This document shows, piece by piece, positions 11,461-64,000 of a stretch of 64,000 nt of DNA. Below the pieces are notes generated by a model. The model ran no database searches and was not told the origin of the DNA. It was given only the letters and a program-made list of their open reading frames with translations. Each line of letters opens with the position of its first letter. The first letter of the stretch is position 1. This stretch comes from a virus. The position numbers were made by a program, and so were the translations under genes. The DNA lies in the IMG/VR virus record IMGVR_UViG_3300039355_000071, one strand, 5' to 3'.

Positions 11461-11560
11461 TCAAAGGAAATTGTAATTTCTCGGTAGAATAATTACAAGA
11501 TATAGTAGTAAATAAAACAAACAAACACAATATATAGTATAAGAAAAGGAGATTAAAATT

Positions 11561-22264: not shown

Positions 22265-22336
22265 AGGGCATTTGCCAAGCGGTAAGGCACAGGATTTTGA
22301 TTCCTGCATTCACCAGTTCGAATCTGGTATGCCCTG
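22265..22336 (+). tRNA. tRNA-Gln (anticodon UUG)
   Basis: Manual cloverleaf. Acceptor AGGGCAT/ATGCCCT. Anticodon stem CAGGA/TCCTG with loop TTTTGAT. T arm ACCAG-TTCGAAT-CTGGT. 72 nt. Confidence 0.85.
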
Positions 22337-22593
22337 CTATGTAACATTCCACCCGGTATGTTTCAGAACGCAGATTTAAAATCTGTAAGCGCAGACTGTA
22401 AGCTGCGTAAGTTCTTATGGAGAATAACTCACTAAAGAGTTACATAGTCAACAGTTCGTTTCTTGATTTAAAATTTGTTGGCAAGCCTAGCGGTCGGCTA
22501 GTTGTGGATTACAGGTCACATTAATTCTTGTAAAGCTTTGTCCACTTACGGATGTATCCAATGTCAATACCCGTCAGTCTTGGCATTGGTTAT

Positions 22594-22667
22594 GGATCAT
22601 TAGCTCAGTTGGTCAGAGCAACCGGCTCATACCCGGTAAGTCGTAGGTTCGAGTCCTATATGATCCA
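22594..22667 (+). tRNA. tRNA-Met (anticodon CAU; elongator, initiator or Ile-lysidine type not resolved)
   Basis: Acceptor GGATCAT/ATGATCC. D arm GCTC-AGTTGGTCA-GAGC. Anticodon loop CTCATAC. T arm GTAGG-TTCGAGT-CCTAT. 74 nt. Confidence 0.85.
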
Positions 22668-22691
22668 TTACAAAATAATAGTAGAAGGGAG

Positions 22692-23512: not shown

Positions 23513-24165
23513 TAACAAAAGAAACTATGTTAATCATTAAATCCAATCAAAAAATGTTGGACATCATTAATACATACATGCAGGATGACATGAAAAAGTT
23601 AAAACCAATATGTCATAAGGTTTGGGAAGGGAAAGTTAGCACAAGCGAATACGAGGATTTATATGATGTAGCAACGGATTGTCTTATAGAATCAGTTGTT
23701 CAATATGATCATTCAAAGTCTTCTTTTAAGACTTTTCTTACTGGAAATATTATGCGAAAGACAAGCACATGGATAAGAGATAATAAATATACTCTTAAAT
23801 CAAGTAATCTGGAAAGAGATAAAAATGGAAAGATCCTACGGGATGAGGATGATATTCATAAAAGACCTAAAAGAATTGAGAATATATCACTAGATGATCC
23901 AATGGAAGATGGTGGAGACTTAAAAGAAATGATACCTGGTACATTTAAAAATCTGTATGATGAATTATTTTATGAAGATTTAAGTGATATTAAGATACGA
24001 AATTATTTAAGCAAACTATCAGATATTCAAAAAGAAATTTTATCATATTTGATAAAAGGTTATGAAACTAAAGACATACAAGAGTTATTACATATTTCTA
24101 AAAAAGATTATGGTAATCATATAGCAGCTATTCAGGCTTATGAAAACGTTAGAGAATTAATGTAA
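23509..24165 (+). CDS. phage-encoded sigma-70-family sigma factor
   Basis: Region-2-like FKTFLTGNIMRKTSTWIRDN. Region-4 HTH EILSYLIKGYETKDIQELLHISKKDYGNHIAAIQAY. Confidence 0.6.
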   Translation: MITKETMLIIKSNQKMLDIINTYMQDDMKKLKPICHKVWEGKVSTSEYEDLYDVATDCLIESVVQYDHSKSSFKTFLTGNIMRKTSTWIRDNKYTLKSSNLERDKNGKILRDEDDIHKRPKRIENISLDDPMEDGGDLKEMIPGTFKNLYDELFYEDLSDIKIRNYLSKLSDIQKEILSYLIKGYETKDIQELLHISKKDYGNHIAAIQAYENVRELM

Positions 24166-31223: not shown

Positions 31224-32804
31224 ATGAGTAGTATTTTAAGTAACTTAGGAATGGTAATTCCGATTGTAGCAATTGTATTAGTTGTAGTTGGTTTGTTAGT
31301 GGCAGGTTATGTAAAGGCTTCACCTGATAGAGCATACATAATTTCTGGACTTAGAAAAGAACCAAAGGTGTTAATTGGTAAAGCTGGAATCAAAATTCCG
31401 TTTTTAGAAAAGAAAGATGAACTGAATTTGCAGTTGATTCCAATTGATGTAAAGACAAGTAGTGCAGTTCCAACAGCAGATTATATTAACATCAATGTAG
31501 ATGCTGCGGTCAACGTAAAGGTAAGTTCAGACAATACAAGATTACAGCTTGCAGCTCAGAACTTTTTAAATAAACCAGTTGATTATATTGGAAGCGTAGC
31601 AAGAGAAGTTCTTGAAGGAAATATGAGAGAAATTGTTGGTAAGATGAATTTAGAGGAAATGGTTTCAGATAGACAGAAGTTTGCCGAACTTGTAAAAGAG
31701 AATGCAGAACCTGATCTTGCAGCTATGGGACTTGATATTGTAAGTTTCAATGTACAGAACTTTGTTGATGAAAATGGTGTTATTGAGAACCTTGGTGTAG
31801 ATAATATTGTTAAGATTCAGAAAAATGCAGCTATTTCAAGAGCTGAAAGTGAAAAAGAGATTGCAAAAGCAAGAGCTATCGCAAAGAAGGAAGCAAATGA
31901 TGCGGAAGTAAGTTCTGAATTAGAGATTGCAAATGCACAGGCTGAAGCTCAGAAGAAGAAAGCAATCGTTCAGGCTAATGCAAATCGAGAATCACAGGAA
32001 GCTCAGATTGAAGCAGATACTCTTATTGCCCAGAAAGAGAATGAACTTGCGATTAAAAAGGCAGAATTACAGAAAGATGCTGATACAAAGAAAGCAAGTG
32101 CAGATGCAGCATATAATATTCAGCAGGAAACAGAGAGAAAGACAGTTGAGATTGCAACGGCTGATGCAAATCTTGCTCGTCAGGAAAAGGCTATTGCTTT
32201 AAAAGAGAAAGAAGTAGAACTTACAGAGAGAACTCTTGAAGCAACAGTAAAGAAACAGGCAGAAGCTGATAAATATGCAAAACAGCAGGAAGCAGATGCC
32301 AAGTTATACGAAACTCAGAGACAGTCGGAAGCAAAACTGTTTGAGAGACAGAAGAATGCCGAAGCAGAAAAGTTTGAACAGGAAAAGAAAGCAGAAGCTG
32401 AAAAAGCAACAGCAGATGCCAACAGATACACAATGGAACAGGAAGCAGAAGGTATTCGTAGTAAAGGACAGGCAGAAGCGGATGCCATTAAAGCAAAAGC
32501 GTTAGCAGAAGCAGAAGGTATCGAAAAGAAAGCAGAAGCCATGAAACAGATGGGCGAAGCCGCTGTATTAGAGATGTACTTCAAAGCAATGCCTGAGATT
32601 GCTAAGAATATTGCAGAGCCACTTGCGAAGGTTGATAAGATTACAATGTACGGTGATGGCAATTCATCTAAGCTGATGAAAGATATTATGAACACTCTCA
32701 ATCAGGTAACAGATGGAATGAAAGAGTCTACTGGTATTGATCTTAGTTCTGTACTTGCTGGTTTTGCAGGTGCAAAGATTGCAGATAATACACAGAATAA
32801 GTAA
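31224..32804 (+). CDS. flotillin/SPFH (band-7) family membrane protein
   Basis: N-terminal transmembrane helix GMVIPIVAIVLVVVGLLVAG. SPFH-like core. Long Ala/Glu/Lys coiled coil with EAEAEK repeats. This is the YqiK/FloT architecture. Confidence 0.65.
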   Translation: MSSILSNLGMVIPIVAIVLVVVGLLVAGYVKASPDRAYIISGLRKEPKVLIGKAGIKIPFLEKKDELNLQLIPIDVKTSSAVPTADYININVDAAVNVKVSSDNTRLQLAAQNFLNKPVDYIGSVAREVLEGNMREIVGKMNLEEMVSDRQKFAELVKENAEPDLAAMGLDIVSFNVQNFVDENGVIENLGVDNIVKIQKNAAISRAESEKEIAKARAIAKKEANDAEVSSELEIANAQAEAQKKKAIVQANANRESQEAQIEADTLIAQKENELAIKKAELQKDADTKKASADAAYNIQQETERKTVEIATADANLARQEKAIALKEKEVELTERTLEATVKKQAEADKYAKQQEADAKLYETQRQSEAKLFERQKNAEAEKFEQEKKAEAEKATADANRYTMEQEAEGIRSKGQAEADAIKAKALAEAEGIEKKAEAMKQMGEAAVLEMYFKAMPEIAKNIAEPLAKVDKITMYGDGNSSKLMKDIMNTLNQVTDGMKESTGIDLSSVLAGFAGAKIADNTQNK

Positions 32805-32959
32805 TACAAGTAAAATTCAAGAGTTGGTAGGTGTCATAGCCTACTGACTCTATCAATATACCATATATAGCAACTATAAAACACAATATATACTATATAT
32901 GGTATATAAATTATATTAGAAGGAAACGCACATTTCTTATGGAATTTCGGAGGTGAAAT

Positions 32960-33139
32960 ATGAATATTTTAAACATTATTTTATTGATTATGGGAATTTT
33001 CAATTTGATTATGGGGATAACATGGTCGAAAAAGAATGTTCTCAACCTTGTATTCAAATTATTATTCTTGGCAGGTGGTGGCTATTTAGTATTCTATGCT
33101 TTATATCTGAGCAACATTTTGATTGTTTTGAATAAGTAA
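32960..33139 (+). CDS. small two-TM membrane protein (59 aa)
   Basis: RBS CGGAGGTGAAAT. MNILNIILLIMGIFNLIMGI... Confidence 0.4.
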   Translation: MNILNIILLIMGIFNLIMGITWSKKNVLNLVFKLLFLAGGGYLVFYALYLSNILIVLNK

Positions 33140-33151: not shown

Positions 33152-33313
33152 ATGTATAAATCCACAATAAGATTTTTAATATGGCTTATGACATTAAATT
33201 TATTAATGAATTTTATTTTTCCAGAACCAGTTGAGTTATGGAAATTTATATTAATAGAGATATGTTTAGGATTTTTGTCATTTATTATGGTTGATTGGAA
33301 AGAAGATAAGTGA
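33152..33313 (+). CDS. small membrane protein (53 aa)
   Basis: RBS AAGAGGAGAAT. Confidence 0.4.
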   Translation: MYKSTIRFLIWLMTLNLLMNFIFPEPVELWKFILIEICLGFLSFIMVDWKEDK

Positions 33314-33320: not shown

Positions 33321-33542
33321 ATGAAATATGTTGTTATTTTAATTGGTCTATTATTCTTGCTATTTGTACCATACATGTTAGCAGACTATATTAAACCATT
33401 ACAAAAGTTCTTTTGTAAAATAGGATGGCATTGTCACCAAAAGGATTATATTACTGAGAGTTTTGATGGTGCTTCCATGCACTGCAAATGTAAATGGTGT
33501 GGTTACAAAGGTATGGTAGATAGTCAAGGAAATTTATTTTAG
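33321..33542 (+). CDS. small membrane protein with Cys-rich tail (73 aa)
   Basis: RBS GTGAGGTAAAT. HCKCKWCGYKG. Confidence 0.45.
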   Translation: MKYVVILIGLLFLLFVPYMLADYIKPLQKFFCKIGWHCHQKDYITESFDGASMHCKCKWCGYKGMVDSQGNLF

Positions 33543-33554: not shown

Positions 33555-34583
33555 ATGACAATTGAACAGATTAAGGACAAATTAAAATCAAAAGAGTATG
33601 ACTTCCTGAGAACAGATAAGAATTTGGGTAACAATATCATTATCTTAACTCTTGGTGGAAGTCATGCATATGGAATGGATAAAGAAGGATCTGATTTAGA
33701 TGTGAGAGGTATTGCACTCAACAGCAAATCAGATATTTTACTTGGAACAGACTTTGAACAGGTCGTAGATGTTGATACGGATACAACTATGTATTCGTTT
33801 AATAAAATGATACAGCTTTTAGCATCAAGTAATCCTAATACAATTGAACAACTTGGCTGTTTGCCTGAGCATTATTTACATTTATCTAAAATTGGTAAAG
33901 AATTATTGGATAATAGAAAAATGTTTCTTTCGCAGATTTGTGTTCATACCTTTGGAGGATATGCTGGTTCTCAGCTCAGACGTATGGAAAACAAGGCTGC
34001 AAGATTGGTTGGTCAGGCAGAAAATGAAGCCTACATTTTAAAAAGCATCAATAATGCAAGATATGAATTTAAAAACAGATATTACCCTCATGAAAATAGT
34101 GATGTGAAACTATATATTGATAAGGCTGTTCAAGAAGGATATGATAGTGAGATTTTTATGGATGTAAACTTGCAACATTATCCGTTAAGAGATTGGGCTG
34201 GCATGTGGAACGAAATGAAGTCCATTGTTAGTAGTTATAGCAAATTTGGTAAAAGAAATGAAAAGGCTGTAGCCCATGATAAATTAGGAAAACATATGGC
34301 TCATTTGATTCGATTATATATGATGTGTATTGATATTCTGGAAAAGGAAGAGATTATCACTTATAGATCAGATGAACACGATTTACTTATGAGTATTAGA
34401 AATGGAGAATATTTAGATGAAAATAGACAACCTATTTCTGAGTTCTATGATTTATTGAATGAATATGAAAAACGTTTTGAATACGCAAAAGAAAATACAT
34501 CTTTGCCTGATAAACCTGATTATAAGAAAATCAATGAATTTAAGATGTATGTAAATGAGAGAATTGTGAAAGGAGATATCTGA
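33555..34583 (+). CDS. Pol-beta-superfamily nucleotidyltransferase
   Basis: LTLGGSHAYGMDKEGSDLDVRGI is the GS-x(9-13)-DxD signature. First gene of the overlapping four-gene operon. Confidence 0.55.
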   Translation: MTIEQIKDKLKSKEYDFLRTDKNLGNNIIILTLGGSHAYGMDKEGSDLDVRGIALNSKSDILLGTDFEQVVDVDTDTTMYSFNKMIQLLASSNPNTIEQLGCLPEHYLHLSKIGKELLDNRKMFLSQICVHTFGGYAGSQLRRMENKAARLVGQAENEAYILKSINNARYEFKNRYYPHENSDVKLYIDKAVQEGYDSEIFMDVNLQHYPLRDWAGMWNEMKSIVSSYSKFGKRNEKAVAHDKLGKHMAHLIRLYMMCIDILEKEEIITYRSDEHDLLMSIRNGEYLDENRQPISEFYDLLNEYEKRFEYAKENTSLPDKPDYKKINEFKMYVNERIVKGDI

Positions 34584-35545
34584 TGGAAATATCAAATAGA
34601 GCAAAAGAAAGATTCTGTAAGGATTGCAATATACCAATTAGATTATTCCAAGAGCCATATTTTTTAGATAGAATTAAGCTTTTTGATGAGTTTTATGGAA
34701 CTGTTGACAAGTGGATTAGATTTGTAAGCGAATTACAGGAGTATAATTGTGAGCAGGATTATTTTGAAGAATATAATCATGTAAAGGATGCAGCTATTAC
34801 AAGTATCAAAGAGTCAGAGGCATATCAGAGATTTAATGCGGAAGATATGAACAAATTCACTGTGATTCATAAAAATTTATCTAATAAAGATATATTTAAG
34901 TCAACTAATACTGGAAGAGTTTTTATCAGTATTGATATGAGAAAGGCTAATTTTTCATCTTTACACGAATATGATAAGAATATATTTCGTGGGACTGATA
35001 CATGGGAAGATTTTATTTCTCAATTCACGGATAACGAACATATTGCAAATAGTAAATATATTCGCCAGGTTATTCTTGGTAATTGTAATCCTAAAAGACA
35101 TATCACCTATGAAAAATACCTTATGGATCAGACATTATCGTTATTATATGACATCATTGGTGAAGAGAGAATTGTATTCTTTTCAAATGATGAGATCGTT
35201 TATGATATGACAACTGCAAGTAATTTGCACATGTTAAGTCTTGTGAGAAATTGTGTTGAAGAAAGATTAAATACAAAATCTAATATTCCATTCAGAGTAG
35301 AGTTATTTTCACTCCACAAGATCAATGGTACTGACGGATACTGTAAGAAAATCTATAAAGAAAATGGAGAATATAATATTGAATTTAAGTGTTTGGATAA
35401 TTATATGATGCCATTCGTACTTAGATATTTCTTAGGAGAAGAAATTACTGAAAGTGACAAGGTGTTCTACCATGAAGGGCTATTGGCAAAGTTTATTGAA
35501 GAACCGAAAATTGAGGTGAATTTGGATGAAAAGATTGAAAATTGA
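34583..35545 (+). CDS. hypothetical protein (320 aa), operon partner
   Basis: ATGG overlap with the upstream stop. Confidence 0.5.
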   Translation: MEISNRAKERFCKDCNIPIRLFQEPYFLDRIKLFDEFYGTVDKWIRFVSELQEYNCEQDYFEEYNHVKDAAITSIKESEAYQRFNAEDMNKFTVIHKNLSNKDIFKSTNTGRVFISIDMRKANFSSLHEYDKNIFRGTDTWEDFISQFTDNEHIANSKYIRQVILGNCNPKRHITYEKYLMDQTLSLLYDIIGEERIVFFSNDEIVYDMTTASNLHMLSLVRNCVEERLNTKSNIPFRVELFSLHKINGTDGYCKKIYKENGEYNIEFKCLDNYMMPFVLRYFLGEEITESDKVFYHEGLLAKFIEEPKIEVNLDEKIEN

Positions 35546-36935
35546 AATTCCATCTGGTGCAAATGAAATTATCCATAGTCTACAAAATAATGGATATGAG
35601 GCATTTTTATGTGGCGGTGCAGTAAGAGATAGTATTCTTGGCAGAACAATTCACGATTATGACATTACAACTTCTGCCACACCAGATGAAATGATGGAAG
35701 TATTCAAGGATAAAAGAATTATTGAAACTGGATTACAACATGGAACTATTACCATTGTAATTGACGGTGAAGGATATGAATGTACCACTTACAGAATTGA
35801 CGGTAATTACTCAGATAGTCGTAGACCTGATAGCGTAACATTTACACGAAATCTTAAAGAAGATTTAAAGCGTAGAGATTTTACAATCAATGCGATGGCA
35901 TACAATGATGAAGTTGGACTTGTAGATCCATTTAATGGCATGGAAGATATTGAGCATTATAAAATCAGATGTGTTGGTAGAGCAGAGGATAGATTTTCAG
36001 AAGATGCTTTAAGGATTTTACGTGCTATTCGGTTTGCTTCACAATTGGGATTTGTAGTTGACTCTGATGTAAGTTTGAACATTCATAAAATGTATAAGAA
36101 TTTAGAGAATATATCTATTGAGAGAATCAACAGTGAGTTCTGTAAAATTGCATTATCAAGCGAGTTTTATATACAGATAGGATTATTCCGTGAAGTATTC
36201 TCGTTATTTATTCCTGAAATAAAAGATATGTTTGATTTTCCGCAGAATAATCCATATCACATCTATGATGTATGGAATCATACAGTACATGCAGTACATG
36301 CTTATGAATGTGATTGTGAACCCGACTTGAATCCAAGGGATTTGATTACATCATTGGCTGTATTTTTTCATGATATTGGAAAGCCACATTGTTATCAAGA
36401 TGGCGAGGATGGCATTAGACATTTCAAAGGTCATGGAAGAGTCAGTGCTGATATGACTGATACAATTATGAAAAGACTTCGTTTTGATAATGATACAAGA
36501 GAAAAGGTAATGCAGCTTGTTTATTATCATGATGCAACTTTTGAAGTGGGTGAAAAGTATATCAAGAGATGGCTCAATAAGATTGGAGAAGAACAATTTA
36601 GAAGATTACTGAATGTTCGTAGAGCAGATATTAAAGCGCAGGCTTATACAGATCAAGAAAGTAGGCTTCAGAAAATTGACAATATCGAATATATCTTAGA
36701 GGAAGTTTTACAGAAAGACGAATGTTTCTCACTGAAAGATTTGGCTGTTGATGGCAATGATTTGATTGAGATTGGATATAAGCCAGGAAAAGAAATAGGG
36801 AATACACTGAATTGTCTTTTGCAGTTAGTAATTGAAGGTGTATATCTAAACGAGAAAAGTGAGTTACTTAAATATGTTGAAACAACAAAAGAATGGATGA
36901 AGTTAGGAGAGAATTATAATGGTAAGATTATTTAG
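35526..36935 (+). CDS. cca: CCA-adding enzyme (tRNA nucleotidyltransferase with C-terminal HD domain)
   Basis: LCGGAVRDSILGRTIHDYDITT (GGAVRD plus DxD) and FFHDIGKPH (HD). Confidence 0.8.
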   Translation: MKRLKIEIPSGANEIIHSLQNNGYEAFLCGGAVRDSILGRTIHDYDITTSATPDEMMEVFKDKRIIETGLQHGTITIVIDGEGYECTTYRIDGNYSDSRRPDSVTFTRNLKEDLKRRDFTINAMAYNDEVGLVDPFNGMEDIEHYKIRCVGRAEDRFSEDALRILRAIRFASQLGFVVDSDVSLNIHKMYKNLENISIERINSEFCKIALSSEFYIQIGLFREVFSLFIPEIKDMFDFPQNNPYHIYDVWNHTVHAVHAYECDCEPDLNPRDLITSLAVFFHDIGKPHCYQDGEDGIRHFKGHGRVSADMTDTIMKRLRFDNDTREKVMQLVYYHDATFEVGEKYIKRWLNKIGEEQFRRLLNVRRADIKAQAYTDQESRLQKIDNIEYILEEVLQKDECFSLKDLAVDGNDLIEIGYKPGKEIGNTLNCLLQLVIEGVYLNEKSELLKYVETTKEWMKLGENYNGKII

Positions 36936-37842
36936 CCACAGTGATTTAGACGGAATCGGTTGTGGTATTTTAGCACAACTTGCATTTGGTAAAGATAATG
37001 TAGAAATTTCATATTGTGATTATGACAATATTGATTCAACTGTAAAGAAATATTTGGAAATAGAACAGGACGACACAATTCCAATTTATATTACCGATAT
37101 TCGTGTCAATGAAGAAACTGCTGAGTTGCTGAATAAAAGAGGCAATGTTCAGTTATTAGATCATCATCCAACAGCTCTTGGATTAAATAAGTATGATTGG
37201 TGTGATGTAGTTATCGAAGATTCCAAAGGAATTAAAACATCGGGAACTATGTTGTTTTATCATTACTTAGGTATGAATGGTTGTCTGAGTGAAGAGTTAG
37301 AGAATAATAAAGCGTTAGAGAGATTTGCTGAACTTGTGAGAGATTATGACACTTGGAGATGGTCAGAACTCGGTGATGAAGGTGTTATTTGTAAGCAGGT
37401 AAATGATTTATTATATCTTTACGGTAGAGATGATTTTATTCATTGGTGCATTTCAGAAATCCATGATGAGGTATTTCCAAGATTATATGCTAAAGATGAG
37501 GTTATTCTGAAGATTAAGCAGGATGAAATTGATAGATATATCGAAGAGAAGAATGAAACTATGTTTACCAGTCCTATGTGTGGTAAGGTTTGTGGTTTTG
37601 TATTTGCAGATAGGTTTGTTAGCGAATTAGGTAATAGACTTTGTAAAATGCATCCTGAAATTGATTTTGTGGCTATGATTGATATTGATGGTTGTACGGT
37701 ATCTTATAGAACCGTTAAAGAAGATATTGATCTTGGTAAAGATGTAGCAAGTTTATTTGGTGGCGGTGGTCATCCAAAAGCTGTTGGTTTAGAATTTAGT
37801 CAGAATATTAAGTCGAAAGTTATTGAGGAAATTTTTGAATAG
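36919..37842 (+). CDS. DHH/DHHA1 phosphoesterase (NrnA-like nanoRNase / pAp phosphatase family)
   Basis: SHSDLDGIGCG (motif I), LLDHHP (motif III), GGGGHPKAVG (DHHA1). Confidence 0.7.
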   Translation: MVRLFSHSDLDGIGCGILAQLAFGKDNVEISYCDYDNIDSTVKKYLEIEQDDTIPIYITDIRVNEETAELLNKRGNVQLLDHHPTALGLNKYDWCDVVIEDSKGIKTSGTMLFYHYLGMNGCLSEELENNKALERFAELVRDYDTWRWSELGDEGVICKQVNDLLYLYGRDDFIHWCISEIHDEVFPRLYAKDEVILKIKQDEIDRYIEEKNETMFTSPMCGKVCGFVFADRFVSELGNRLCKMHPEIDFVAMIDIDGCTVSYRTVKEDIDLGKDVASLFGGGGHPKAVGLEFSQNIKSKVIEEIFE

Positions 37843-37854: not shown

Positions 37855-38052
37855 GTGAATAAAAGCAAATTTACATATCCAAAATGTCCATATTGCAATG
37901 AAGAATATCAAGATGGAGTTATGGAATATGATTTGATGAATTTAGTAACTCAAGGTTGGTGCAAAGAAGTAAACGTAAAATGTCATAGTTGTGGTGAGTA
38001 TTTCAAAGTGAAGGCACACATTACTTATTATGGTTCAAAGTTAGCGAGGTAA
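37855..38052 (+). CDS. zinc-ribbon protein
   Basis: CPYCNEE...CHSCGEY. GTG start. Confidence 0.4.
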   Translation: MNKSKFTYPKCPYCNEEYQDGVMEYDLMNLVTQGWCKEVNVKCHSCGEYFKVKAHITYYGSKLAR

Positions 38053-38056
38053 AAGA

Positions 38057-38281
38057 GTGTTAGATTACAGTAATGCAGATTTCCCTAAAGAAACTTATTA
38101 CATAAGACATCCAAATCGCATATATTTTCCTACAGATTTTTATGATGGTGAAAAAATATTCTATTATGGAAAACATACTAAACCAAGTAGTAATGCGAGA
38201 GGATATAGATGGTATCGAAATGTGCATGGTTTAATGAAACTTGTTCATTGGACTGATATTAAACATAGTAAATTATTTTAA
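38057..38281 (+). CDS. small hypothetical protein
   Basis: GTG start after GCGAGGTAAAAGA. Confidence 0.35.
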   Translation: MLDYSNADFPKETYYIRHPNRIYFPTDFYDGEKIFYYGKHTKPSSNARGYRWYRNVHGLMKLVHWTDIKHSKLF

Positions 38282-40364: not shown

Positions 40365-40681
40365 GTTCTGCTTGTGGTGATAAGCCACAGTTAGTTGGAG
40401 GTATTGGTGAGATAAATTTTGGAAAGCAATTTCGCCAGGGTAATAGGGTATATGATTCAGACCATGTAGCAATGTGTTTATTAGCACAGCCTGTAGGTAA
40501 TGCTGGTGGATTTAGTTATTTATATGTGGTTAGAAAATAAAATGGAGAATAATACAATAAGTAGTTGAAAACAAAATAGCATATACAATATATAGTATTA
40601 AATAATTACAACAAATACTATATATTGTATAAAAATCAAGACCGAAAGAAAGCGGATTTTCTTACGATGAAAGGAGATAAT

Positions 40682-41404: not shown

Positions 41405-41602
41405 ATGGTAGACATTCAGTGTAAAGACGGAAAATATATTATTGAGGCAAGGATTCATAGTGAAGTTGATACAAATGATATTGCAAAAGTGCAGGAAAGA
41501 TTTACTTCTGATTGTGCTTATGAGTTTGCAGAAGCTATGAGAGAAGCAGTAAACGTTAGCCATTTGGTAATGAAAGAACAAAGAAAAGAGGTAACAAAAT
41601 GA
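41405..41602 (+). CDS. small hypothetical protein (65 aa)
   Basis: RBS AAGGAGAATAAG. Confidence 0.45.
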   Translation: MVDIQCKDGKYIIEARIHSEVDTNDIAKVQERFTSDCAYEFAEAMREAVNVSHLVMKEQRKEVTK

Positions 41603-42111
41603 GCAAAACATTAATCGTAGTAGATATGCAGAATGATTTTATTGATGGCTCACTCGGTACAAAGGAAGCACAGACAATTGTATCGAATGTAGCAAAGAAA
41701 ATTAAGGAGTACAAGGATGCTGGTAAACAGGTAATCTTTACAAGAGACACACACCCTGAGAATTATTTGGAAACATATGAGGGTAAGCATCTTCCTGTTA
41801 CTCACTGTGTAAAGAATACTGTTGGTTGGCAGATTTCAGATAGGTTAGATTTTGATATTGAGAACGATATTCTGATTGATAAGCCTACTTTTGGTTGGTT
41901 AAACTGGAAGGATTTTGGATTTGAAAGTGTTGAGGTTTGCGGATTATGCACCGACATCTGTGTGGTTTCAAATGCACTTATTATTAGAGCAAATTATCCT
42001 GAGATTGATATTACAGTAGATGCAAGCTGTTGTGCAGGTGTCACACCTGATACTCACAATGCTGCATTAGCAACTATGAAGATGTGTCAGATCGAAGTGA
42101 TTGGAGAGTAG
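41599..42111 (+). CDS. isochorismatase-family cysteine hydrolase (nicotinamidase PncA-like)
   Basis: LIVVDMQNDF and CGLCTDICV (catalytic Asp and Cys context). 170 aa. Confidence 0.6.
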   Translation: MSKTLIVVDMQNDFIDGSLGTKEAQTIVSNVAKKIKEYKDAGKQVIFTRDTHPENYLETYEGKHLPVTHCVKNTVGWQISDRLDFDIENDILIDKPTFGWLNWKDFGFESVEVCGLCTDICVVSNALIIRANYPEIDITVDASCCAGVTPDTHNAALATMKMCQIEVIGE

Positions 42112-42114
42112 AAT

Positions 42115-42951
42115 ATGATTAAAATTAATGGCGAAATTGTAACAATCAACAAGTTTCCAGATGGAACACCAAGAGTAAATATTGATATAAACAACATTGA
42201 GGAAGACTCTTATGATGGCTCTCCTTGTATTTGGATTGAATGGATTTATGAGAGTAACGATGAGATATTTTATCTGATGTTAGTAAAGAAACATCTTGAA
42301 AGATTTTTTACTAATGTGGATTATTATTTGTCTCTTCCATATATTCCTAATGCACGAATGGATAGAGTAAAAAATGATGATGAAGTATTCACATTGAAGT
42401 ATTTTTGCGATTTTATCAATTGGTTAGGATTTTCATCAGTTTATGTTTTAGATGCTCATAGCGATGTTTCTACTGCATTACTCAATAATTGTGTAAAAGA
42501 AAATCCAAAAGAGTATGTTGATAAAGCTATTTCAAAGATTGGTATGAGAAATCTTGTACTTTATTTCCCAGATGCAGGTGCAGCTAAGAGATATTCAGAT
42601 TTATTTCCTGAGTTACCATATTGTTATGGTGAAAAGAAGAGAGATTGGAAGACTGGTAAAATCCTTGGATTAGACATTAGAACAAATGGTATTGATTTGA
42701 AAGATAAAGCTGTGTTAATGATTGATGATATTATCGCATATGGCGGTTCACTTTATTATAGTGCAGAAGAATTGAAGAAACATGGTGTAACTGAGATTTA
42801 TGCATATGCCACTCATACAGAGAATTCAATTCTTAATAAAGAAAAAGGAACATTAATCAAATCTTTGGAGAATAATACTGTGAACAGATTATTTACCACA
42901 AACAGTTTATTTAATGGTAGTCATGAAAAAATTACGGTTATGGAGGTTTAA
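42115..42951 (+). CDS. ribose-phosphate pyrophosphokinase (Prs)-like enzyme; candidate ADPR-pyrophosphate synthetase (Adps) of a NARP1 module
   Basis: KFPDGT (N-terminus), VLDAHSDV, FPDAGAAKRY, VLMIDDIIAYGGSL (PRPP-binding-like loop). Confidence 0.65.
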   Translation: MIKINGEIVTINKFPDGTPRVNIDINNIEEDSYDGSPCIWIEWIYESNDEIFYLMLVKKHLERFFTNVDYYLSLPYIPNARMDRVKNDDEVFTLKYFCDFINWLGFSSVYVLDAHSDVSTALLNNCVKENPKEYVDKAISKIGMRNLVLYFPDAGAAKRYSDLFPELPYCYGEKKRDWKTGKILGLDIRTNGIDLKDKAVLMIDDIIAYGGSLYYSAEELKKHGVTEIYAYATHTENSILNKEKGTLIKSLENNTVNRLFTTNSLFNGSHEKITVMEV

Positions 42952-42955
42952 AATT

Positions 42956-44416
42956 ATGGATAACACAATGGCTTTATTATTATCAGATACTTATAAACAG
43001 TGTCATGATCGCATGTACCCAAATGGTTTGACTAAATTGGTGTCGTATTGGGTGCCTCGAAAATCAATGTTAGAGAATCAGAATGAAATGGTTTTCTTTG
43101 GATTGCAGGCATTTATCAAAGAATATTTAATGGGAGATTTTCAGAAAAATTTCTTCGATTTATCGGAAGATGAGATGTTAACTCTTTATACAGATTCGAT
43201 GGATGTACAGATTGGTAGAGACAACTATGATTTAGATAAAATTGTAGAGCTTCACAGATTAGGATATTTACCACTTGAGATTAGAGCATTGCCAGAAGGT
43301 ACACTTGTTCCTATGGGTGTTCCTTGTATTGAGATTACAAATACGGATGATAAATTTGCTTGGCTTGTTCAGTGGATTGAATGTATTCTTCAGGTAGAAT
43401 TATGGAAACCTTGTTGTCATGCAACTATCGGTCATATGTATCGTGAAATTGCAGATTATTGGTATAACAAGACAACAGACGGATTGCCTGGAAATATGGC
43501 TTGTGCGGATTTTGGCATGAGAGGAATGTCTTGTATGGATGAAGCTACAAGATGTTCAGCATCATGGTTGCTTTCATTTAATAAGACATCTACAATTCCA
43601 GCAATTAATTATATTGATAGATATTACAATGCCGATTGTAAGAATAATGGTATTGGAATCGGTGCTGTCTCAACTGAGCATTCTGTAATGGGTGCTAATT
43701 TCTCAATTGATGGAGATGAGATTACGTTTGTTAAAAGACTTTTAACAGAGTTATATCCAAATACATCATTTAGTATGGTTTCAGATACTTATGATTATTG
43801 GAATATGGTAAATAATATTCTTCCACAGTGTAAAGAAGAGATTATGAATCATAATGGAAAGCTCTTGGTTCGTCCTGATAGTGGTGATATTGTAGAGATT
43901 TCAGTTAAAACAGTTGAAAGGTTGTGGGAGATTTTTGGTGGTTCTGTAAATGGTAAAGGTTATAAGGTATTAAATCCGCATATCGGTATTATTTATGGTG
44001 ATGGCTGCACACTTTCTAATGTAGAAACTATTTGGAAAGAATTAGAAAAGCGTGGTTTCGCAGCTAATAATATTGCTTATGGTGTAGGAGCTTTTTGCTT
44101 CACTGCAATCGTTGAAAACGGCAAGATGATTGTTGTTACAAGAGATACTTTTGGTATTGCAATGAAAGCTACATATGGAGTAATTGATGGCAAGAAGTTA
44201 ATGATTTTCAAAGATCCTAAGACAGATACAAGTCACTTAAAGAAATCTCATAAAGGATGTTGTAGAGTATACGATGATAACGGTGAATTAAAGTGTCAAG
44301 ATCAGTTACTTGAAATGAGTGATAACAGTTTACTTACTACCGTATTTAAAGATGGAGAATTAGTAAGAGAAGATACATTTGCGGATATTAGAAACAGAAT
44401 GTACGGAGGTAAGTAA
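42956..44416 (+). CDS. NAMPT-family type II phosphoribosyltransferase; candidate nicotinamide-ADPR transferase (Namat)
   Basis: N-terminal LLLSDTYKQCH (the D-[ST]-Y-K motif of NAMPT/PncB). About 487 aa from the RBS-supported ATG 42956. Confidence 0.65.
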   Translation: MDNTMALLLSDTYKQCHDRMYPNGLTKLVSYWVPRKSMLENQNEMVFFGLQAFIKEYLMGDFQKNFFDLSEDEMLTLYTDSMDVQIGRDNYDLDKIVELHRLGYLPLEIRALPEGTLVPMGVPCIEITNTDDKFAWLVQWIECILQVELWKPCCHATIGHMYREIADYWYNKTTDGLPGNMACADFGMRGMSCMDEATRCSASWLLSFNKTSTIPAINYIDRYYNADCKNNGIGIGAVSTEHSVMGANFSIDGDEITFVKRLLTELYPNTSFSMVSDTYDYWNMVNNILPQCKEEIMNHNGKLLVRPDSGDIVEISVKTVERLWEIFGGSVNGKGYKVLNPHIGIIYGDGCTLSNVETIWKELEKRGFAANNIAYGVGAFCFTAIVENGKMIVVTRDTFGIAMKATYGVIDGKKLMIFKDPKTDTSHLKKSHKGCCRVYDDNGELKCQDQLLEMSDNSLLTTVFKDGELVREDTFADIRNRMYGGK

Positions 44417-44877
44417 TGATTAAAATTATTGATGGAGACTTACTCACTTCGAACACTGATATTATTGCACACCAGGTTAATTGCAAAGGTGCTTTTAATT
44501 CTGGTGTTGCAAAAGCGATCCGTGATTATGATGTGCAAGTATATAAAGATTATCATAGTTTTTGTTCGATTAATACACCTGAACAATTATTGGGTTCTGT
44601 TAGATATTTTCAGTCTAATATTGACGCAAGAATATATGCAAATTTATTTGCACAAAAATCATATGGCTATGACGGAAAACAGTATACAGATATTGACGCT
44701 TTAAGAAAATGTTTTGAAAATTTGAGATCATATGCAGTTTTGGAAAATATGAGTATTGCAATGCCATATAAAATTGGATGTGTTCGTGGCGGTGCAAATT
44801 GGGAAGAAGTGTATCAAATGATAAATGATATATTTGAAAATTGTAATATTGAATTATGGAGGTTAGATAAAGGATGA
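44416..44877 (+). CDS. macro-domain (ADP-ribose-binding/processing) protein
   Basis: IIDGDLLTSNTDIIAHQVNCKGAFNSGVAKAI. Confidence 0.65.
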   Translation: MIKIIDGDLLTSNTDIIAHQVNCKGAFNSGVAKAIRDYDVQVYKDYHSFCSINTPEQLLGSVRYFQSNIDARIYANLFAQKSYGYDGKQYTDIDALRKCFENLRSYAVLENMSIAMPYKIGCVRGGANWEEVYQMINDIFENCNIELWRLDKG

Positions 44878-45632
44878 GTAATTTTGATGCTAAGAAAGTA
44901 AAGAATGAGATCGTAGAGTGGATTAGAGATTGGTTTGAACAGAATGGTAAAGATTGTATGGCAGTAGTTGGAATTTCTGGCGGTAAGGATTCAAGCGTTG
45001 TTGCTGGCTTATGTTGTGAAGCTCTTGGAAAAGATAGAGTTTTTGGTGTAATGATGCCACAGGGAGAACAGCCAGATATTGATTATTCTCGAATGCTTAT
45101 AGACCATCTTGGAATCGACAGTTGTGTTGTAAATATAGGCAATACAGTTCGCACTTTAAAGCATGAGATTAAACCACAGTTGGGAGATCATTGGTCAAAG
45201 CAGACTTCTACAAATCTCCCTGCTCGTATTCGTATGACTACGCTTTATGCAGTATCGCAGACAGTAAATGGTCGTGTCGCTAATACGTGTAATCTTTCAG
45301 AAACATTACTATCTTGGGAAACCAGATGGGGTGATGCAGTTGGAGATTTTGCACCAATTAGCGACTTAACAGTAAAAGAAGTGAAAGCTATTGGATATGA
45401 ACTTGGATTGCCAAATGAATTAATCGAAAAAATTCCGTCTGATGGACTGTGTGGAAGTACAGATGAAGATGCATTGGGATTTAAATACTCTGTTATGGAT
45501 AGATATATTAGAACAGGCGAGATTGACGACAAAGATATTAAAAAGAAAATTGATAATCGAGTAGAAAAATATCGGTTTAAGAGAATGCCTATTCCTTATT
45601 ATAAAACAGGTATGGAAAGATATGTAGACTAA
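44874..45632 (+). CDS. nadE: NH3-dependent NAD+ synthetase
   Basis: VVGISGGKDSSVVAGL (PP-loop SGGxDS). 252 aa. Confidence 0.7.
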   Translation: MSNFDAKKVKNEIVEWIRDWFEQNGKDCMAVVGISGGKDSSVVAGLCCEALGKDRVFGVMMPQGEQPDIDYSRMLIDHLGIDSCVVNIGNTVRTLKHEIKPQLGDHWSKQTSTNLPARIRMTTLYAVSQTVNGRVANTCNLSETLLSWETRWGDAVGDFAPISDLTVKEVKAIGYELGLPNELIEKIPSDGLCGSTDEDALGFKYSVMDRYIRTGEIDDKDIKKKIDNRVEKYRFKRMPIPYYKTGMERYVD

Positions 45633-45633: not shown

Positions 45634-46833
45634 ATGGCAGAAGACTTAACTAATTTACAATTTGGAAAATTAACAGTCATCAAACGTGGAGACAACGATA
45701 AAAGCGGACATGTGAGATGGTGGTGTAAATGTGACTGTGGCAACCCTAAATTGATTTTAGTTGCCGCAGGACATTTAAAATCAGGACATACTCAATCATG
45801 TGGATGTATAAGAAGAGATAATATTAAACCACAAAAGAATTTAGAAGGAAAAAGATTTGGGAAATTAATTGTAAAAGAATTTCTTGGTATAAAAAATCAT
45901 AGATCATTATGGAGTTGTGATTGTGATTGTGGTAAGAAAATTAACGCTTTATCATCGTCTTTAACTTCTGGAAAACTTAAGTCATGTGGATGTTTATCTT
46001 CTGTAGCTGAGTTCGAATTAAGCCAGTTCTTGACAGATGAACAAATTATATTTGATACGCAATATAAGTTTGATGATTGTAAATATAAAAGAAGATTGCC
46101 ATTCGATTTTGCAATTTTTCATCCACAAAATAAGAAACTCTTATTTTTAATTGAACTACATGGAGAACAGCATTATTTTCCGTTTACATTTAATAGTGAG
46201 TCTGATATGCAAAAGAAGGAAAATTTTTTGCATAGAAAACATTTGGATAAATTAAAAGAAGATTATTGTAGTGAAAATAATATTCCATTGTTAATTATTA
46301 GATATACAAATTTTCAAACAAAAGAAAAAATTGTAAAAGGGTTTTATGAAAAGCTCTTGCAAAAGAATATTACATTTGATGATTATATATTTTCATCAAA
46401 ACAAATAAAGGATGATTTACAAGTAAAGCATAAACGTGTCTATAAAAGAAAAGTAGTCCAAATAGATATACCCAACAAGAATATTATAAGAGAATATAAT
46501 AGTATGGAAGAGGCATATAAGATAACTGGAATATCATCTGGACAGATTTCGGATTGTTGTAAGGGTAATTGTAAAACAGCAGGTGGATATGCCTGGGCAT
46601 ATAATAACGGAAACGTTAATATTGAAGAAGTAATTAAACGTGCAACAATTCCAAATAGAACAAATGCAGTTGTGATTTTCCAAAAAGATAAAAATGGAAA
46701 TATTATAAAAGAGTGGCAAAGTATAACAGAAGCAGCACATTCTTTGGGAGTAAGTCATCAAGGTATTCAAGCGTGTTGTTCAGGAAAGCAGAAAACTTGT
46801 AAAGGATTTGTTTGGAATTATAAGAAAGATTGA
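45634..46833 (+). mobile_element. homing-endonuclease-like gene: zinc-ribbon repeats, DUF559/Vsr-like PD-(D/E)xK nuclease core, C-terminal NUMOD-like DNA-binding repeats
   Basis: FGKLxV..W.C.CDCG..SCGC repeated twice. LPFDFAIFHPQNKKLLFLIELHGEQHY. Duplicated EY.S..EA...TGIS...I..CC.GK.KT..G..W.Y modules. Confidence 0.45.
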
Positions 46834-46914
46834 TTCAATGCATGAGAAAAATCTGTTTAAATTACAGCCGATGCCAAGTTTTGTGTATCAGGCGTAAATG
46901 AGATACTATATATA

Positions 46915-47328
46915 GTGCTTATAGAAAATATGGACACTATATATAGTAATATTTTTACCAAGAAACATAGATTTCATTTGAGACGAAAAGAGGTGAAGTT
47001 TTTGAAAATCGTACAGAATAAATCGCATTGCGATTTTAGAATAAAAATCGGAAATAACTATGTAACTGTTGCAACGCTTCATCCGTGGTTATTTAGTAAA
47101 CATAATCATAAATACAATCTGTATTTTTATTACTATGGAGCTGAATATGAGGAAGGAACGTATGCTTGCTGTCATAGAAATGGAAATGAAAAGATGGTGG
47201 TGTATGAGCAGGAAGATGAACTTCATAAAGAATTCCTTGAAAGAGTAAGAAGAATAATTTCAAAGAAGTTGTATGTAATAGGAAGTTCGATCCTGGAAGA
47301 AATAAAATACATTGAAGATGAAGATTAG
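46915..47328 (+). CDS. hypothetical protein (137 aa)
   Basis: Start uncertain (GTG 46915 or ATG 46930). Flanked by two ACTATATATAGT palindromes. Confidence 0.4.
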   Translation: MLIENMDTIYSNIFTKKHRFHLRRKEVKFLKIVQNKSHCDFRIKIGNNYVTVATLHPWLFSKHNHKYNLYFYYYGAEYEEGTYACCHRNGNEKMVVYEQEDELHKEFLERVRRIISKKLYVIGSSILEEIKYIEDED

Positions 47329-63248: not shown

Positions 63249-64000
63249 ATGCCAGTACATGATGATTTAGGCTGTCGCATGAAGACATTTTATGAGCAGA
63301 TTCCTAAGACAAAATTAATGAGAAGATGCCCAGTTGCTATCCGCATTGATGGAAAAGCGTTTCATACATTCACAAGAGGATTCCAGAAACCGTTTGATGA
63401 AGTGTTAATCAGGTCTATGCAGGAAACAATGAAATACTTATGCGAGAATATTCAAGGCTGTGTTCTTGGTTACACACAATCAGACGAGATTACATTAATC
63501 CTTGTTGATTATAAGAAGCTCACATCTTCAGCATGGTTTGATTATGAGGTGCAGAAAATTTGTAGTATTACAGCAAGTATGACTACGATGGCATTTAATA
63601 AATTTTTTGAAAAGTATGTTGACGAATATAGATTTAGTAAATGGGATGGTGTTTCAAAATATGAGGATGGTACATGGGGATATATTCAGACATTACTAAA
63701 TGCAGTTGACAAAGGTGCAATGTTTAATGCTCGTTGCTTCAATATTCCAAAAGAAGAAGTAACAAATCTCGTATATTGGCGACAACTTGACGCTTCTCGT
63801 AACTCAATTCAGATGGTAGGTCAAGCCAATTTCTCACACAAAGAATTACAGAATAAGTCATGTAATGATATTCAGGATATGCTTATGATTCAAAAAGGTA
63901 TTAACTGGAATGATTTGCCGACTTATCAGAAGAGGGGAAGCTGTTGTGTAAAACGTGAATTCTGGGTTGATAAAAATGATGGCGAAGAGTTTAGTAAAGA
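63249..64000 (+). CDS. Thg1-like protein (tRNA-His guanylyltransferase family 3'-5' polymerase), truncated by the window end
   Basis: RBS AGAGAGG. AIRIDGKAFHTF, YTQSDEITLIL and YWRQLDASRNSI match the Thg1 signatures VVRLDGRNFHRF, YGQSDEYSFVF and SWRQADCHINNL. Confidence 0.7.
   Translation, partial: MPVHDDLGCRMKTFYEQIPKTKLMRRCPVAIRIDGKAFHTFTRGFQKPFDEVLIRSMQETMKYLCENIQGCVLGYTQSDEITLILVDYKKLTSSAWFDYEVQKICSITASMTTMAFNKFFEKYVDEYRFSKWDGVSKYEDGTWGYIQTLLNAVDKGAMFNARCFNIPKEEVTNLVYWRQLDASRNSIQMVGQANFSHKELQNKSCNDIQDMLMIQKGINWNDLPTYQKRGSCCVKREFWVDKNDGEEFSK

Follow-up and report, generated by a model that had tools for sequence, protein, structure and literature searches.

A four-gene cassette in a large gut phage of Lachnospiraceae encodes an RlaP-family nucleotidyltransferase and a 320-aa protein of an unannotated family, here called X. 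These two form the conserved core of the cassette, to which a CCA-adding enzyme and a DHH/DHHA1 enzyme are variable add-ons. X is a frequent RlaP partner for which no description was found in the searchable literature or family libraries. We consider it probable that the four genes belong to a modular RNA-repair cassette of phages, of which the window (the whole 64,000-nucleotide stretch that was analysed) carries a version that restores the damaged 3′ ends of RNAs, with tRNAs as the likeliest substrate.

Organization of the cassette

The four genes lie on the + strand and comprise an RlaP-family Pol-beta nucleotidyltransferase (gene 1, 33555-34583, 342 aa), X, with its polymerase-like fold (gene 2, 34583-35545, 320 aa), a class II CCA-adding tRNA nucleotidyltransferase with a C-terminal HD phosphohydrolase domain (gene 3, 35526-36935, 469 aa) and an NrnB/RecJ-core-like DHH/DHHA1 phosphoesterase (gene 4, 36919-37842, 307 aa). 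As read from the sequence, genes 1 and 2 meet at TGATG (34581-34585) with a 1-nt overlap and AAAGGAGA 7 nt upstream; the ATG of gene 3 (35526) is 20 nt inside ORF2 with GAGGTG upstream, and that of gene 4 (36919) is 17 nt inside ORF3 with AGGAGAG upstream. Each of the three junctions has a good Shine-Dalgarno site. A preliminary description of this DNA had proposed four overlapping frames forming one unit, and all of the ORFs and all three overlaps are indeed present. By itself this overlap is only mildly unusual for the window: a crude gene set of its + strand has 110 neighbouring pairs, of which 25 overlap. Its conservation in related loci is stronger evidence. There, the overlap between RlaP and X measures 1 or 4 nt in 80 of 93 loci and that between X and CCA 7-23 nt in 60 of 67, and the CCA and DHH genes overlap in 21 of 40, consistent with one tightly packed unit. 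The GS..DxD motif named in the preliminary description is likewise present, as are the CCA-enzyme set, DHH and GGGH.

The four encoded proteins

By sequence, gene 1 is assigned to the RlaP family of RNA-repair enzymes: it matches Pfam PF10127 (E 3.3e-21; 76.5 bits, cut-off 23) over the NTase half of the profile, and phrog_388 over its full length (E 2e-50). Its Pol-beta signature consists of GGS 34-36 and DLD 47-49 (within GGSHAYG 34-40 and SDLDVRG 46-52), with candidate third carboxylates in VDVDTDT 71-77. The preliminary description was right about the GS..DxD motif of this “extra” Pol-beta enzyme, but the protein is not anonymous. The activity of the family is known for the Pseudomonas enzymes only: these add one or two NMPs to an RNA 3′-OH, with a preference for the broken end in a mimic of cleaved tRNA, and are required to restore aminoacylation of over-damaged tRNA (PMC12776372). 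It is less reactive at the intact acceptor 3′ end, and truncated acceptor ends lie outside the published data (PMC12776372); the lower reactivity at the intact end counts against a 3′-end-rebuilding role. The RNA ligase neighbour from which the family takes its name was not found in the 64-kb window by the Pfam and phmmer searches described below, but family membership stands because the ligase criterion is contextual, not structural. Since gene 1 is an RlaP with published biochemistry (PMC12776372), the cassette falls into a class of RNA-repair systems that has been described; the earlier statement that it is not a described system needs correcting, as the cassette is not wholly undescribed.

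Gene 3 passes the NCBIfam equivalog NF009814 PRK13299 (311.8 bits versus a cut-off of 290), which upholds its original annotation as a CCA-adding enzyme. Pfam matches are PolyA_pol at the head (E 9e-38), tRNA_NucTran2_2 and HD (25.8 bits, cut-off 22). Class II CCA enzymes carry motifs A-D in the form GGxVRD, DxD, RRD and EDxxR; gene 3 has GGAVRD 30-35, DYD 44-46, RRD 116-118 and EDALR 159-163, together with HDIGK 282-286. The HD-domain ligands are an H-containing segment at 244-252, HD 282-283, H 303, HD 335-336 and D 368. These features mark gene 3 as a genuine CCA-adding enzyme of class II whose HD motif is intact. The domain is as in the E. coli multifunctional CCA/repair enzyme, and we predict a phosphatase role for it here.

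In gene 4, the DxD, D, DHH and D motifs of the N-terminal domain and the GGGH of the C-terminal domain are all intact (DHH 80-84, GGGH 281-286), and the nearest structures are DHH/DHHA1 nucleases, in agreement with the first assignment to this class. The source names of its matches, its fold neighbours and its short C-terminus point to NrnB; the last, 22 residues past GGGH, resembles that of NrnB clades that favour short RNAs. Gene 4 is a two-domain DHH/DHHA1 protein that appears closest to the NrnB/RecJ-core 3′-end nucleases, and closer to these than to NrnA, with which it had first been compared. It is a probable 3′-end exoribonuclease; characterised NrnB-family enzymes act from the RNA 3′ end (PMC12709177). 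We also considered a RecJ single-stranded DNA exonuclease and rejected it, as the OB-fold, the other extra domains and an equivalog profile match are absent.

Protein X was not found in the searchable literature or in family libraries. Structure prediction gave this 320-aa protein a polymerase-like fold that had been invisible in the preliminary description: a right hand with palm plus fingers, from one AF2 run on a shallow alignment of 35 sequences at least 68% identical. Its nearly invariant residues are D118, D203, E204, K158 and R161. In the model D118 closes a beta-strand (the loop directly after it has pLDDT <50) and D203-E204 sit at a beta-hairpin turn, while the invariant K158 and R161 lie on the helix between them. 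Catalytic carboxylates of RRM-type palm domains occupy such strand-end and hairpin-turn positions (PMC2904730), and the nearly invariant residues of X are those expected for two-metal nucleotidyl transfer and triphosphate binding. In structure comparisons X aligns over 200-238 residues with polymerases versus about 110 with cyclases.

The folds closest to X are those of family B (and Y) DNA polymerases. Like them, X combines a right-hand palm and fingers with motifs in the order A-B-C, and its acidic residues, which end strand 1 and occupy the hairpin turn, are separated by a basic helix. Unlike them, it has only 320 aa, lacks an exonuclease, N-terminal or little-finger domain, and is found among RNA-repair genes, not in a replication or translesion-synthesis context. 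By sequence it has no significant match to any polymerase family. A canonical family B polymerase was rejected, since the motifs DxxSLYPS, Kx3NSxYG and YGDTDS and a profile match were sought and are absent; for the Y family, which is recognised by an IMS profile and a little-finger domain, there is a faint stretch of similarity, S-x-D-E-x-x-x-D. X also resembles Thg1 and the Thg1-like TLPs, which share a palm-domain nucleotidyltransferase fold, with motifs I-x-I-D near strand 1 and S/N-D-E-I at the hairpin, and which occur in the same cassettes; a part in repairing tRNA ends is known for TLPs (PMC3061083; PMC2904730). From the model, X may carry out polymerase-like nucleotide addition.

The RlaP-X pair in related loci

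X adjoins RlaP in 94 of 105 related loci (numbered with the prefix L). The sampled loci are mostly close relatives, and part of the conserved synteny therefore reflects shared ancestry. The pair is also kept at 35-36% identity in L109 and L111/L112, occurs in swapped order in L102, and persists while its flanks change and homing-endonuclease genes insert around it. No RlaP adjoins X in about 10% of loci and, after dereplication, in 8 of 32 clusters, some of which are truncated by contig ends; X occurs by itself in L110, in Salicola phage SCTP-2 and in a 642-kb phage. The CCA enzyme is present in most related loci and the DHH enzyme in about half, many RlaP-X loci have no CCA enzyme nearby, and DHH follows RlaP-X in loci that lack CCA (L072-L079). 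The preliminary description built its reading on the CCA enzyme, but the conserved core consists of RlaP and the 320-aa X.

Other RNA-repair genes recur beside the pair. Orthologues of the Thg1-like gene of the window immediately precede RlaP in L050, L051 and L053, immediately follow DHH in L004, and are 2-6 kb from the cassette in L026, L061, L078 and L092. An RNA ligase (PF09414) and a polynucleotide kinase stand beside RlaP-X in L111, the same ligase occurs in L060 and L061, and a ligase plus kinase in L062; X is flanked by a kinase-phosphatase-Rnl1 ligase fusion and a metallophosphoesterase in L065, and by phosphoesterases in L105. It is because RlaP-X is joined by Thg1, RNA ligases, kinases and phosphoesterases that we read these loci as a modular phage RNA-repair cassette. 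What the analysis as a whole shows is which families the genes belong to, how their products fold, which residues are conserved, how the genes are linked and what the cassettes contain.

Other RNA-processing genes in the window

The tRNA genes and the Thg1-like gene that the preliminary description had noted are both present. tRNA-Gln(UUG) and tRNA-Met(CAU) genes lie at 22265..22668 (+); neither encodes a 3′-CCA, with ‘cta’ and ‘tta’ following the discriminator. The gene for a Thg1-like 3′-5′ polymerase (63249..64000, +; PF04446, E 7.6e-30, 103.9 bits, cut-off 29.2) is cut by the window end and is unlinked to the cassette, 25 kb away. A Pfam search of most window ORFs of at least 150 aa revealed no RNA ligase or polynucleotide kinase, nor did a phmmer search of the window with the ligases and kinases of related loci. 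Because these enzymes were not found, the “full tRNA end-healing toolkit” proposed earlier is overstated for the window, although relatives do carry them.

Proposed function and alternatives

A role in tRNA or RNA end repair is the best reading of the cassette and a well-supported one, as proposed at the outset, given the RlaP and CCA-enzyme identities and the repair-enzyme neighbours. The window version is a ligase-less ‘3′-end rebuilding’ cassette, for which we infer every catalytic step in this phage, and the substrate, as follows. The DHH/DHHA1 enzyme would trim ragged or illegitimately extended 3′ ends, or clear released short fragments, and the HD domain of the CCA enzyme would strip 2′,3′-cyclic or 3′-phosphates, making a 3′-OH available. 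RlaP could then, without a template, put back one or two missing nucleotides. X, a compact polymerase-like enzyme co-made with RlaP, may provide a second nucleotide-addition activity or RlaP's substrate specificity; our first guess would be that it fills in, directed by a template, the 3′ strand of acceptor stems that have been truncated. The CCA-adding enzyme would rebuild the CCA end, and the Thg1-like enzyme, encoded elsewhere in the genome, could restore the 5′ strand. If this is true, translation would be sustained in the face of abortive-infection or toxin effectors of the host that cut tRNA ends or make them shorter or longer. Were the damage anticodon-loop cleavage, the sealing step would have to be encoded elsewhere in the phage genome.

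The closest known systems share parts of this arrangement. In the bacterial RlaP repair operons (RtcB-RlaP-RtcA, Pseudomonas) the same PF10127 family occurs among RNA end-processing enzymes, and relatives of the cassette resemble them in having RNA ligases and kinases. In contrast, the window RlaP has no adjacent ligase and its usual neighbour is the unannotated polymerase-fold X; the searchable published descriptions of RlaP operons make no mention of a polymerase-fold partner. As with phage T4 Pnk/Rnl1 ‘heal and seal’ and jumbo-phage repertoires, a phage would be repairing host-inflicted tRNA damage, and RlaP, the CCA-adding enzyme and Thg1 have been listed as phage repair nucleotidyltransferases (PMC7824862). 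Those accounts are at the level of repertoires, whereas the window genes are translationally coupled in a cassette that has RlaP-X at its centre; unlike Pnk/Rnl1, it lacks a kinase and ligase and looks specialised for 3′-end rebuilding, not nick sealing. Cellular quality control of tRNA 3′ ends also pairs a class II CCA enzyme with a 3′-end nuclease, and the tRNA-3′-end toxin MenT3 loses effect when either RNase PH or a class II CCA enzyme is overexpressed (PMC11541572). Here, however, the nuclease is DHH/DHHA1, not RNase PH or RNase T, and the cassette is phage-encoded and linked to RlaP-X.

X might instead be a partner of RlaP that is catalytically inert or at least no polymerase, keeps a palm-like scaffold and serves as an RNA-binding or specificity subunit or as a regulator, which we regard as doubtful. 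Its lack of significant sequence similarity to any polymerase family and of canonical PolB motifs would fit, as would the tight translational coupling, which suggests a stoichiometric complex, and the limit of one or two additions and loose in vitro specificity of RlaP, which leave room for a partner. However, the near-invariant D118, D203, E204, K158 and R161 suit nucleotidyl transfer and lie on the right secondary-structure elements, and X is also found without RlaP and therefore has a function of its own. It is unlikely that the cassette serves housekeeping rather than counter-defence, maturing and maintaining phage tRNAs and recycling RNA fragments to nucleotides. NrnB-type enzymes are general degraders of short RNAs (PMC12709177). 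The two phage tRNA genes lack an encoded CCA, and L027 has tRNA genes some 4 kb upstream of its cassette. Yet a CCA enzyme alone suffices for tRNA maturation, Firmicute hosts already have an essential one of their own, and many RlaP-X loci have none nearby; housekeeping would leave both the RlaP-X pairing and the recurrent linkage to Thg1, RNA ligase, polynucleotide kinase and phosphoesterase unexplained.

We judge it highly improbable that the cassette holds separate pathways, with the DHH enzyme, and perhaps a cyclase-like X, acting on second messengers of the CBASS, type III CRISPR or Pycsar type. The preliminary description had raised degradation of immune signals by gene 4, an idea weakened because the tested NrnB-family proteins do not cleave c-di-AMP (PMC12709177). 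In addition, DHH overlaps the CCA gene in many loci and follows RlaP-X where CCA is missing, the alignment of X with cyclases is far shorter than with polymerases, and the only PADLOC match among the four genes is a weak one, of the CCA HD domain to Cas3.

Sequences flanking the cassette

An SPFH gene lies upstream (31224-32804), and SPFH/Band-7 proteins reportedly act as RNA-repair scaffolds with a cognate tRNA-like RNA, according to a 2016 survey. We rejected such a scaffolded system: the gene is not part of the cassette, having no homologue in any of the 105 related loci, and an Rfam search of the cassette region gave no RNA family match. Two small ORFs are close-packed after DHH (37855..38281, +), encoding a 65-aa Cys-rich zinc-ribbon-like protein and a 74-aa protein; homologues follow DHH in a subset of loci, and their membership in the cassette is uncertain. 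Directly upstream of RlaP, three small hydrophobic ORFs (32960-33139, 33152-33313 and 33321-33542, +) probably share its transcript; some relatives, but not all, have homologues in this place (L024, L029, L035, L036, L043-45), and it is uncertain whether the three take part in repair. An inverted pair of the motif ATACCATATATAG (32858..32905) lies in the 155-nt gap that precedes the unit. This motif has 15 matches in the window versus 3.2 expected, a number reached in none of 100 shuffles, and its inverted pairs fall in intergenic gaps at 11.5, 32.9, 40.6 and 46.9 kb, and the pair may be a promoter or operator from which a transcription unit starts.

A translationally coupled partner of RlaP in a temperate gut phage

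Across a large clade of gut phages and of prophages in Lachnospiraceae, the nucleotidyltransferase RlaP is usually accompanied by a translationally coupled, polymerase-shaped partner, here called protein X. In the window the two open a cassette of four + strand ORFs, present exactly where the preliminary description placed them (33555–37842): gene 1, RlaP (33555–34583); gene 2, X (34583–35545); gene 3, a CCA-adding enzyme (35526–36935); and gene 4, a DHH enzyme (36919–37842). The window has a low GC content (~32%), almost all of its long ORFs lie on the + strand, and it contains an integrase gene and two tRNA genes. Because of the integrase, the exclusive matches to uncultured human-gut phage contigs, and the sources of the related loci (viral contigs of 90–206 kb and Lachnospiraceae genomes), we assign the source element to a large temperate phage of Lachnospiraceae. 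Cultivable relatives include the prophages of Eubacterium plexicaudatum ASF492 and Lachnospiraceae bacterium A4.

Genes 1 and 2 meet at a TGATG (34581–34585), the X and CCA frames share 20 nt (35526–35545), the CCA and DHH frames share 17 nt (36919–36935), and at all three junctions a Shine-Dalgarno sequence precedes the downstream ATG by ~7 nt. These overlaps had been read as evidence of expression as a unit. Overlap alone is weak evidence of this because ~23% of neighbouring + strand ORF pairs in the window overlap, but the same overlaps are kept in dozens of related loci, which strengthens the case. A 13-nt motif, ATAC[C/A/T]ATATATAG, has 15 matches in the window against 3.2 expected, with no shuffle reaching 15. 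A motif search of the window places inverted pairs in intergenic gaps at 11525–11540, 46903–46949, 32858–32905 (upstream of the cassette) and 40583–40630; judged from sequence, these are candidate phage promoters or operators at transcription-unit borders. The latter two pairs suggest one transcription unit between them, which would also take in three very small hydrophobic ORFs ahead of gene 1 and run past gene 4 through several small ORFs and a C5 DNA methyltransferase. A repeated motif near 38.3 and 38.7 kb is no more frequent than chance, and Rfam detects no structured or tRNA-like RNA in the cassette, its only window matches being the two tRNAs at 22 kb.

Known enzymes flank an unannotated protein

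Gene 1 belongs to the RlaP family (PF10127, E 3e-21, well over threshold), matches phrog_388 over its full length and carries the catalytic signature GGS plus DLD. Pseudomonas RlaP enzymes put one or two NMPs on RNA 3′-OH ends, act preferentially at the broken end of a mimic of cleaved tRNA, and are required for tRNA with lost nucleotides to recover aminoacylation; how one or two essentially untemplated nucleotides restore function is a question left open by that work (2025 preprint, PMC12776372).

As originally proposed, gene 3 encodes a CCA-adding enzyme, here placed in class II: it scores 311.8 bits against an NCBIfam equivalog cut-off of 290, and every head-domain motif is present, as is an HD domain with its metal ligands. 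In the E. coli enzyme the HD domain strips terminal phosphates. Gene 4 encodes a two-domain DHH/DHHA1 enzyme with all catalytic motifs intact. Its close relatives match Pfam DHH and are named NrnB in some sources; NrnA, GdpP and PggH are more distant from it, and family II pyrophosphatases are far removed. The DHH part of the earlier ‘DHH/NrnA-like’ label is correct, with NrnB and the RecJ core closer than NrnA. A RecJ-like DNA exonuclease, one of the findings that together would have spoken against the original reading, is not indicated: the RecJ profile threshold is not reached and RecJ’s extra domains are absent. The members of the NrnB family that have been characterised digest RNA starting at its 3′ end, with a preference for short RNAs where a long C-terminal extension is missing (PMC12709177); the gene 4 product ends 22 residues past its GGGH.

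Protein X has a polymerase-like predicted fold

Searches of Pfam, PHROGs, NCBIfam, PADLOC and PDB sequences return nothing for the 320-aa protein X, even when a family profile is used and E values up to 10 are allowed. Its family is large, with 1,574 clusters at the 90% identity level and 1,583 representatives at the 50% level (E ≤1e-3), yet almost all members are unnamed, and these ~1,580 clusters at 50% identity are currently without Pfam, PHROGs or NCBIfam annotation. An AlphaFold2 prediction, a single model from a shallow alignment, has a pLDDT of 81.5 and a pTM of 0.76. When this model is searched with Foldseek, the best 50 matches are all polymerase-type palm enzymes, albeit with weak E values (best 3.5e-4); they comprise family B and family A polymerases, one retron reverse transcriptase and one chain of a Csm/Cas10 complex.

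A diverse alignment of 38 sequences (34–56% identity) shows complete or almost complete conservation at F11, F27, R30, S116, D118, N123, T149, S157, K158, R161, G166, D203, E204, K269 and D292. The model puts D118 at the end of a beta-strand, D203-E204 at the turn of a beta-hairpin, and K158 and R161 on a helix between them, a layout that corresponds to motifs A, B and C of RRM-type palm polymerases (PMC2904730). X is thus predicted to fold like a polymerase and to have a plausible active site; with no significant sequence link to a named family, it lies outside every defined polymerase family.

Assignment to particular families was unsuccessful. As a divergent Thg1, X gives an hhalign probability of 0.2 with an alignment limited to the D-E hairpin, and membership of family B or the Y family finds no Pfam or PDB sequence match. 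The Y-family IMS profile matches three of the 38 members, all below threshold, and comparison with Dpo4 gives a non-significant E of 0.034 over an ‘S-x-D-E’ stretch. Among the members examined there are no informative domain fusions, and one carries a PLD-like region. Two related loci (L099 and L100, 9413–10912) encode a 499-aa X beside NADAR and DUF5662 genes; its 196-aa N-terminal extension contains no known domain.

RlaP and X occur together with RNA-repair genes

RlaP directly adjoins X in 94 of 105 X loci, a sample that leans to close relatives, and the two genes usually share 1 or 4 nt. A CCA-enzyme profile match occurs in 70 loci; in four of them (L067, L075, L076 and L081) the match, which lies upstream, more probably comes from a kinase of the PNK/HD type through the common HD domain. 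The CCA gene directly follows X in ~60 loci. DHH is found in 49 of the 105; in nine loci (L072–L079 and L081) X is followed by a small 111-aa gene and then DHH, with no CCA gene between. After dereplication at 80% identity, the commonest architecture among the 32 clusters is RlaP-X alone. The pair is kept at ~35% identity in one distant locus (L109) and at 36% in two others (L111 and L112), and in L102 the order is reversed, X-RlaP. X occurs without RlaP in Salicola phage SCTP-2, a 642-kb phage, L110 and some Lachnospiraceae chromosomal sites; one such solitary X (L090, 10001–10960) lies between an rlmH-like gene and ruvAB.

The neighbours that join RlaP-X in relatives are the usual components of RNA heal-and-seal systems. 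Three loci (L050, L051 and L053) have Thg1 immediately upstream of RlaP, and in L004 it comes directly after DHH. The order in L111 is RlaP-X-109aa-CCA-84aa-RNA ligase (PF09414)-173aa-polynucleotide kinase; the same type of ligase follows RlaP-X-CCA in L060 and L061, and a ligase and kinase follow RlaP-X in L062. In L065, which has no RlaP, X has a metallophosphoesterase on one side and a kinase-phosphatase-Rnl1 ligase fusion on the other; in the 642-kb phage its neighbours are metallophosphoesterase, HAD-like and Nudix genes. The window itself had been credited with a full toolkit for healing tRNA 5′ and 3′ ends; this holds for the CCA enzyme and for Thg1, 25 kb away, but Pfam searches of most ORFs of at least 150 aa and phmmer searches with the ligases and kinases of related loci found no ligase or kinase in the 64 kb. 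A PADLOC search returned nothing relevant to membership of the cassette in a defence system.

One relative (L107, MT836204.1, 8161–10138) has an RlaP 52% identical to that of the window followed directly by a 301-aa AAA+ ATPase in place of X, and RlaP therefore has alternative coupled partners. Relatives also carry insertions of homing-endonuclease-like ORFs (Zn-ribbon/NUMOD-like, GIY-YIG and HNH) within or next to RlaP and between X and CCA (L029, 7590–8972; L056, 6908–7588; L027, 11193–11774; likewise L032, L037, L048, L057, L058, L063 and L046), and in several the RlaP frame is split by them. Group I or II introns were rejected as the cause, as Rfam gives no match and the insertions encode these ORFs.

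A possible role in rebuilding tRNA 3′ ends

We propose that the window’s version of the cassette could rebuild RNA 3′ ends in four steps: DHH would trim or clear the end, the HD domain of the CCA enzyme would take off terminal phosphates, RlaP and X would put back lost residues, and the CCA enzyme would complete the end. Thg1 could repair 5′ ends (PMC3061083). Such a cassette would be useful to a phage because host effectors attack tRNA ends; the MenT3 toxin lengthens tRNA 3′ ends, an effect relieved by overexpressed class II CCA enzyme or RNase PH (PMC11541572). Our preferred guess, held with low confidence, is that X fills in a recessed acceptor stem from a template. In its full form, which we consider unlikely, X would be a minimal right-hand RNA-repair polymerase, of a sort not recognised before, that refills the 3′ strand of a truncated acceptor stem with the 5′ strand as template, after which RlaP would add the untemplated discriminator base and the CCA enzyme would complete the end. 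X would then be the 5′-to-3′ counterpart of Thg1-like 3′-to-5′ repair, and the three enzymes would make up a complete pathway that restores tRNA 3′ ends after cuts reaching deep into the stem.

The main alternative is that X is a specificity or regulatory subunit of RlaP; were it only a specificity subunit, it would still explain RlaP targeting. An RNA ligase in the ‘ligase slot’ beside RlaP was rejected as the main reading of X and is disfavoured, because the folds matched are those of polymerases rather than ATP-grasp or RtcB enzymes and canonical ligases occur together with X in the same cassettes. Housekeeping maturation of the phage’s own tRNAs would account for the CCA enzyme, as the tRNA-Gln and tRNA-Met genes (22265–22668, with a 255-nt spacer between them) lack an encoded CCA, but it leaves RlaP-X and the linkage to ligase, kinase and Thg1 unexplained. 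Two points weaken the earlier suggestion that DHH could degrade second messengers such as immune signals: the coupling of DHH to the CCA gene, and published NrnB data, which report that c-di-AMP is not cut (PMC12709177).

The cassette had also been called an undescribed system. RNA repair by phages, RlaP itself and the CCA and Thg1 enzymes of phages are already known (PMC7824862), and phage-encoded RNA repair is a known counter-defence idea. We found no description of the RlaP-X pairing or of a polymerase-like X in the searchable literature; an earlier mention in the founding RlaP survey (Burroughs and Aravind 2016) is possible. RlaP biochemistry is very recent, and X is a concrete, testable candidate answer to how RlaP’s untemplated additions restore function. 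Should X prove to be an active polymerase, it would rank among the smallest right-hand polymerases known, dedicated to RNA repair, and would define a 3′-end repair pathway against the growing list of host effectors that cleave, trim, lengthen or phosphorylate the acceptor ends of tRNAs.

Other features of the window

A 526-aa SPFH/Band-7 and flotillin-domain gene (31224–32804) separates phrog_2018 from the cassette. None of the 105 related loci has a homologue of this gene; it was therefore rejected as a system component and looks like a recent phage-specific insertion of the moron type. In one relative (L001, 4392–8993 of a 460-kb contig) RlaP-X follows closely downstream of a gene for an FtsH-like AAA/M41 protease; FtsH is a common partner of SPFH proteins, and this parallel with the SPFH gene upstream in the window may be coincidence.

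A run of NAD-related genes (41599–45632) comprises an isochorismatase/nicotinamidase-like gene (41599–42111), a phosphoribosyltransferase/PRPP-synthetase-like gene (42115–42951), NAMPT (42914–44416), a 153-aa ORF and NAD synthase (44874–45632), followed by a NUMOD-type homing endonuclease (45634–46833). The run looks like a pathway for NAD salvage or regeneration, such as has been proposed to act against defences that deplete NAD. A sigma-70-like factor (23509–24165) precedes a GmrSD_N/NsnA-like protein (24184–25590; PADLOC NsnA E 1e-11), a defence-type nuclease domain on a phage. A radical SAM protein (54966–55856) and a PAPS-reductase-like protein (57430–58440), encoded near each other, may belong to a nucleic-acid modification pathway.
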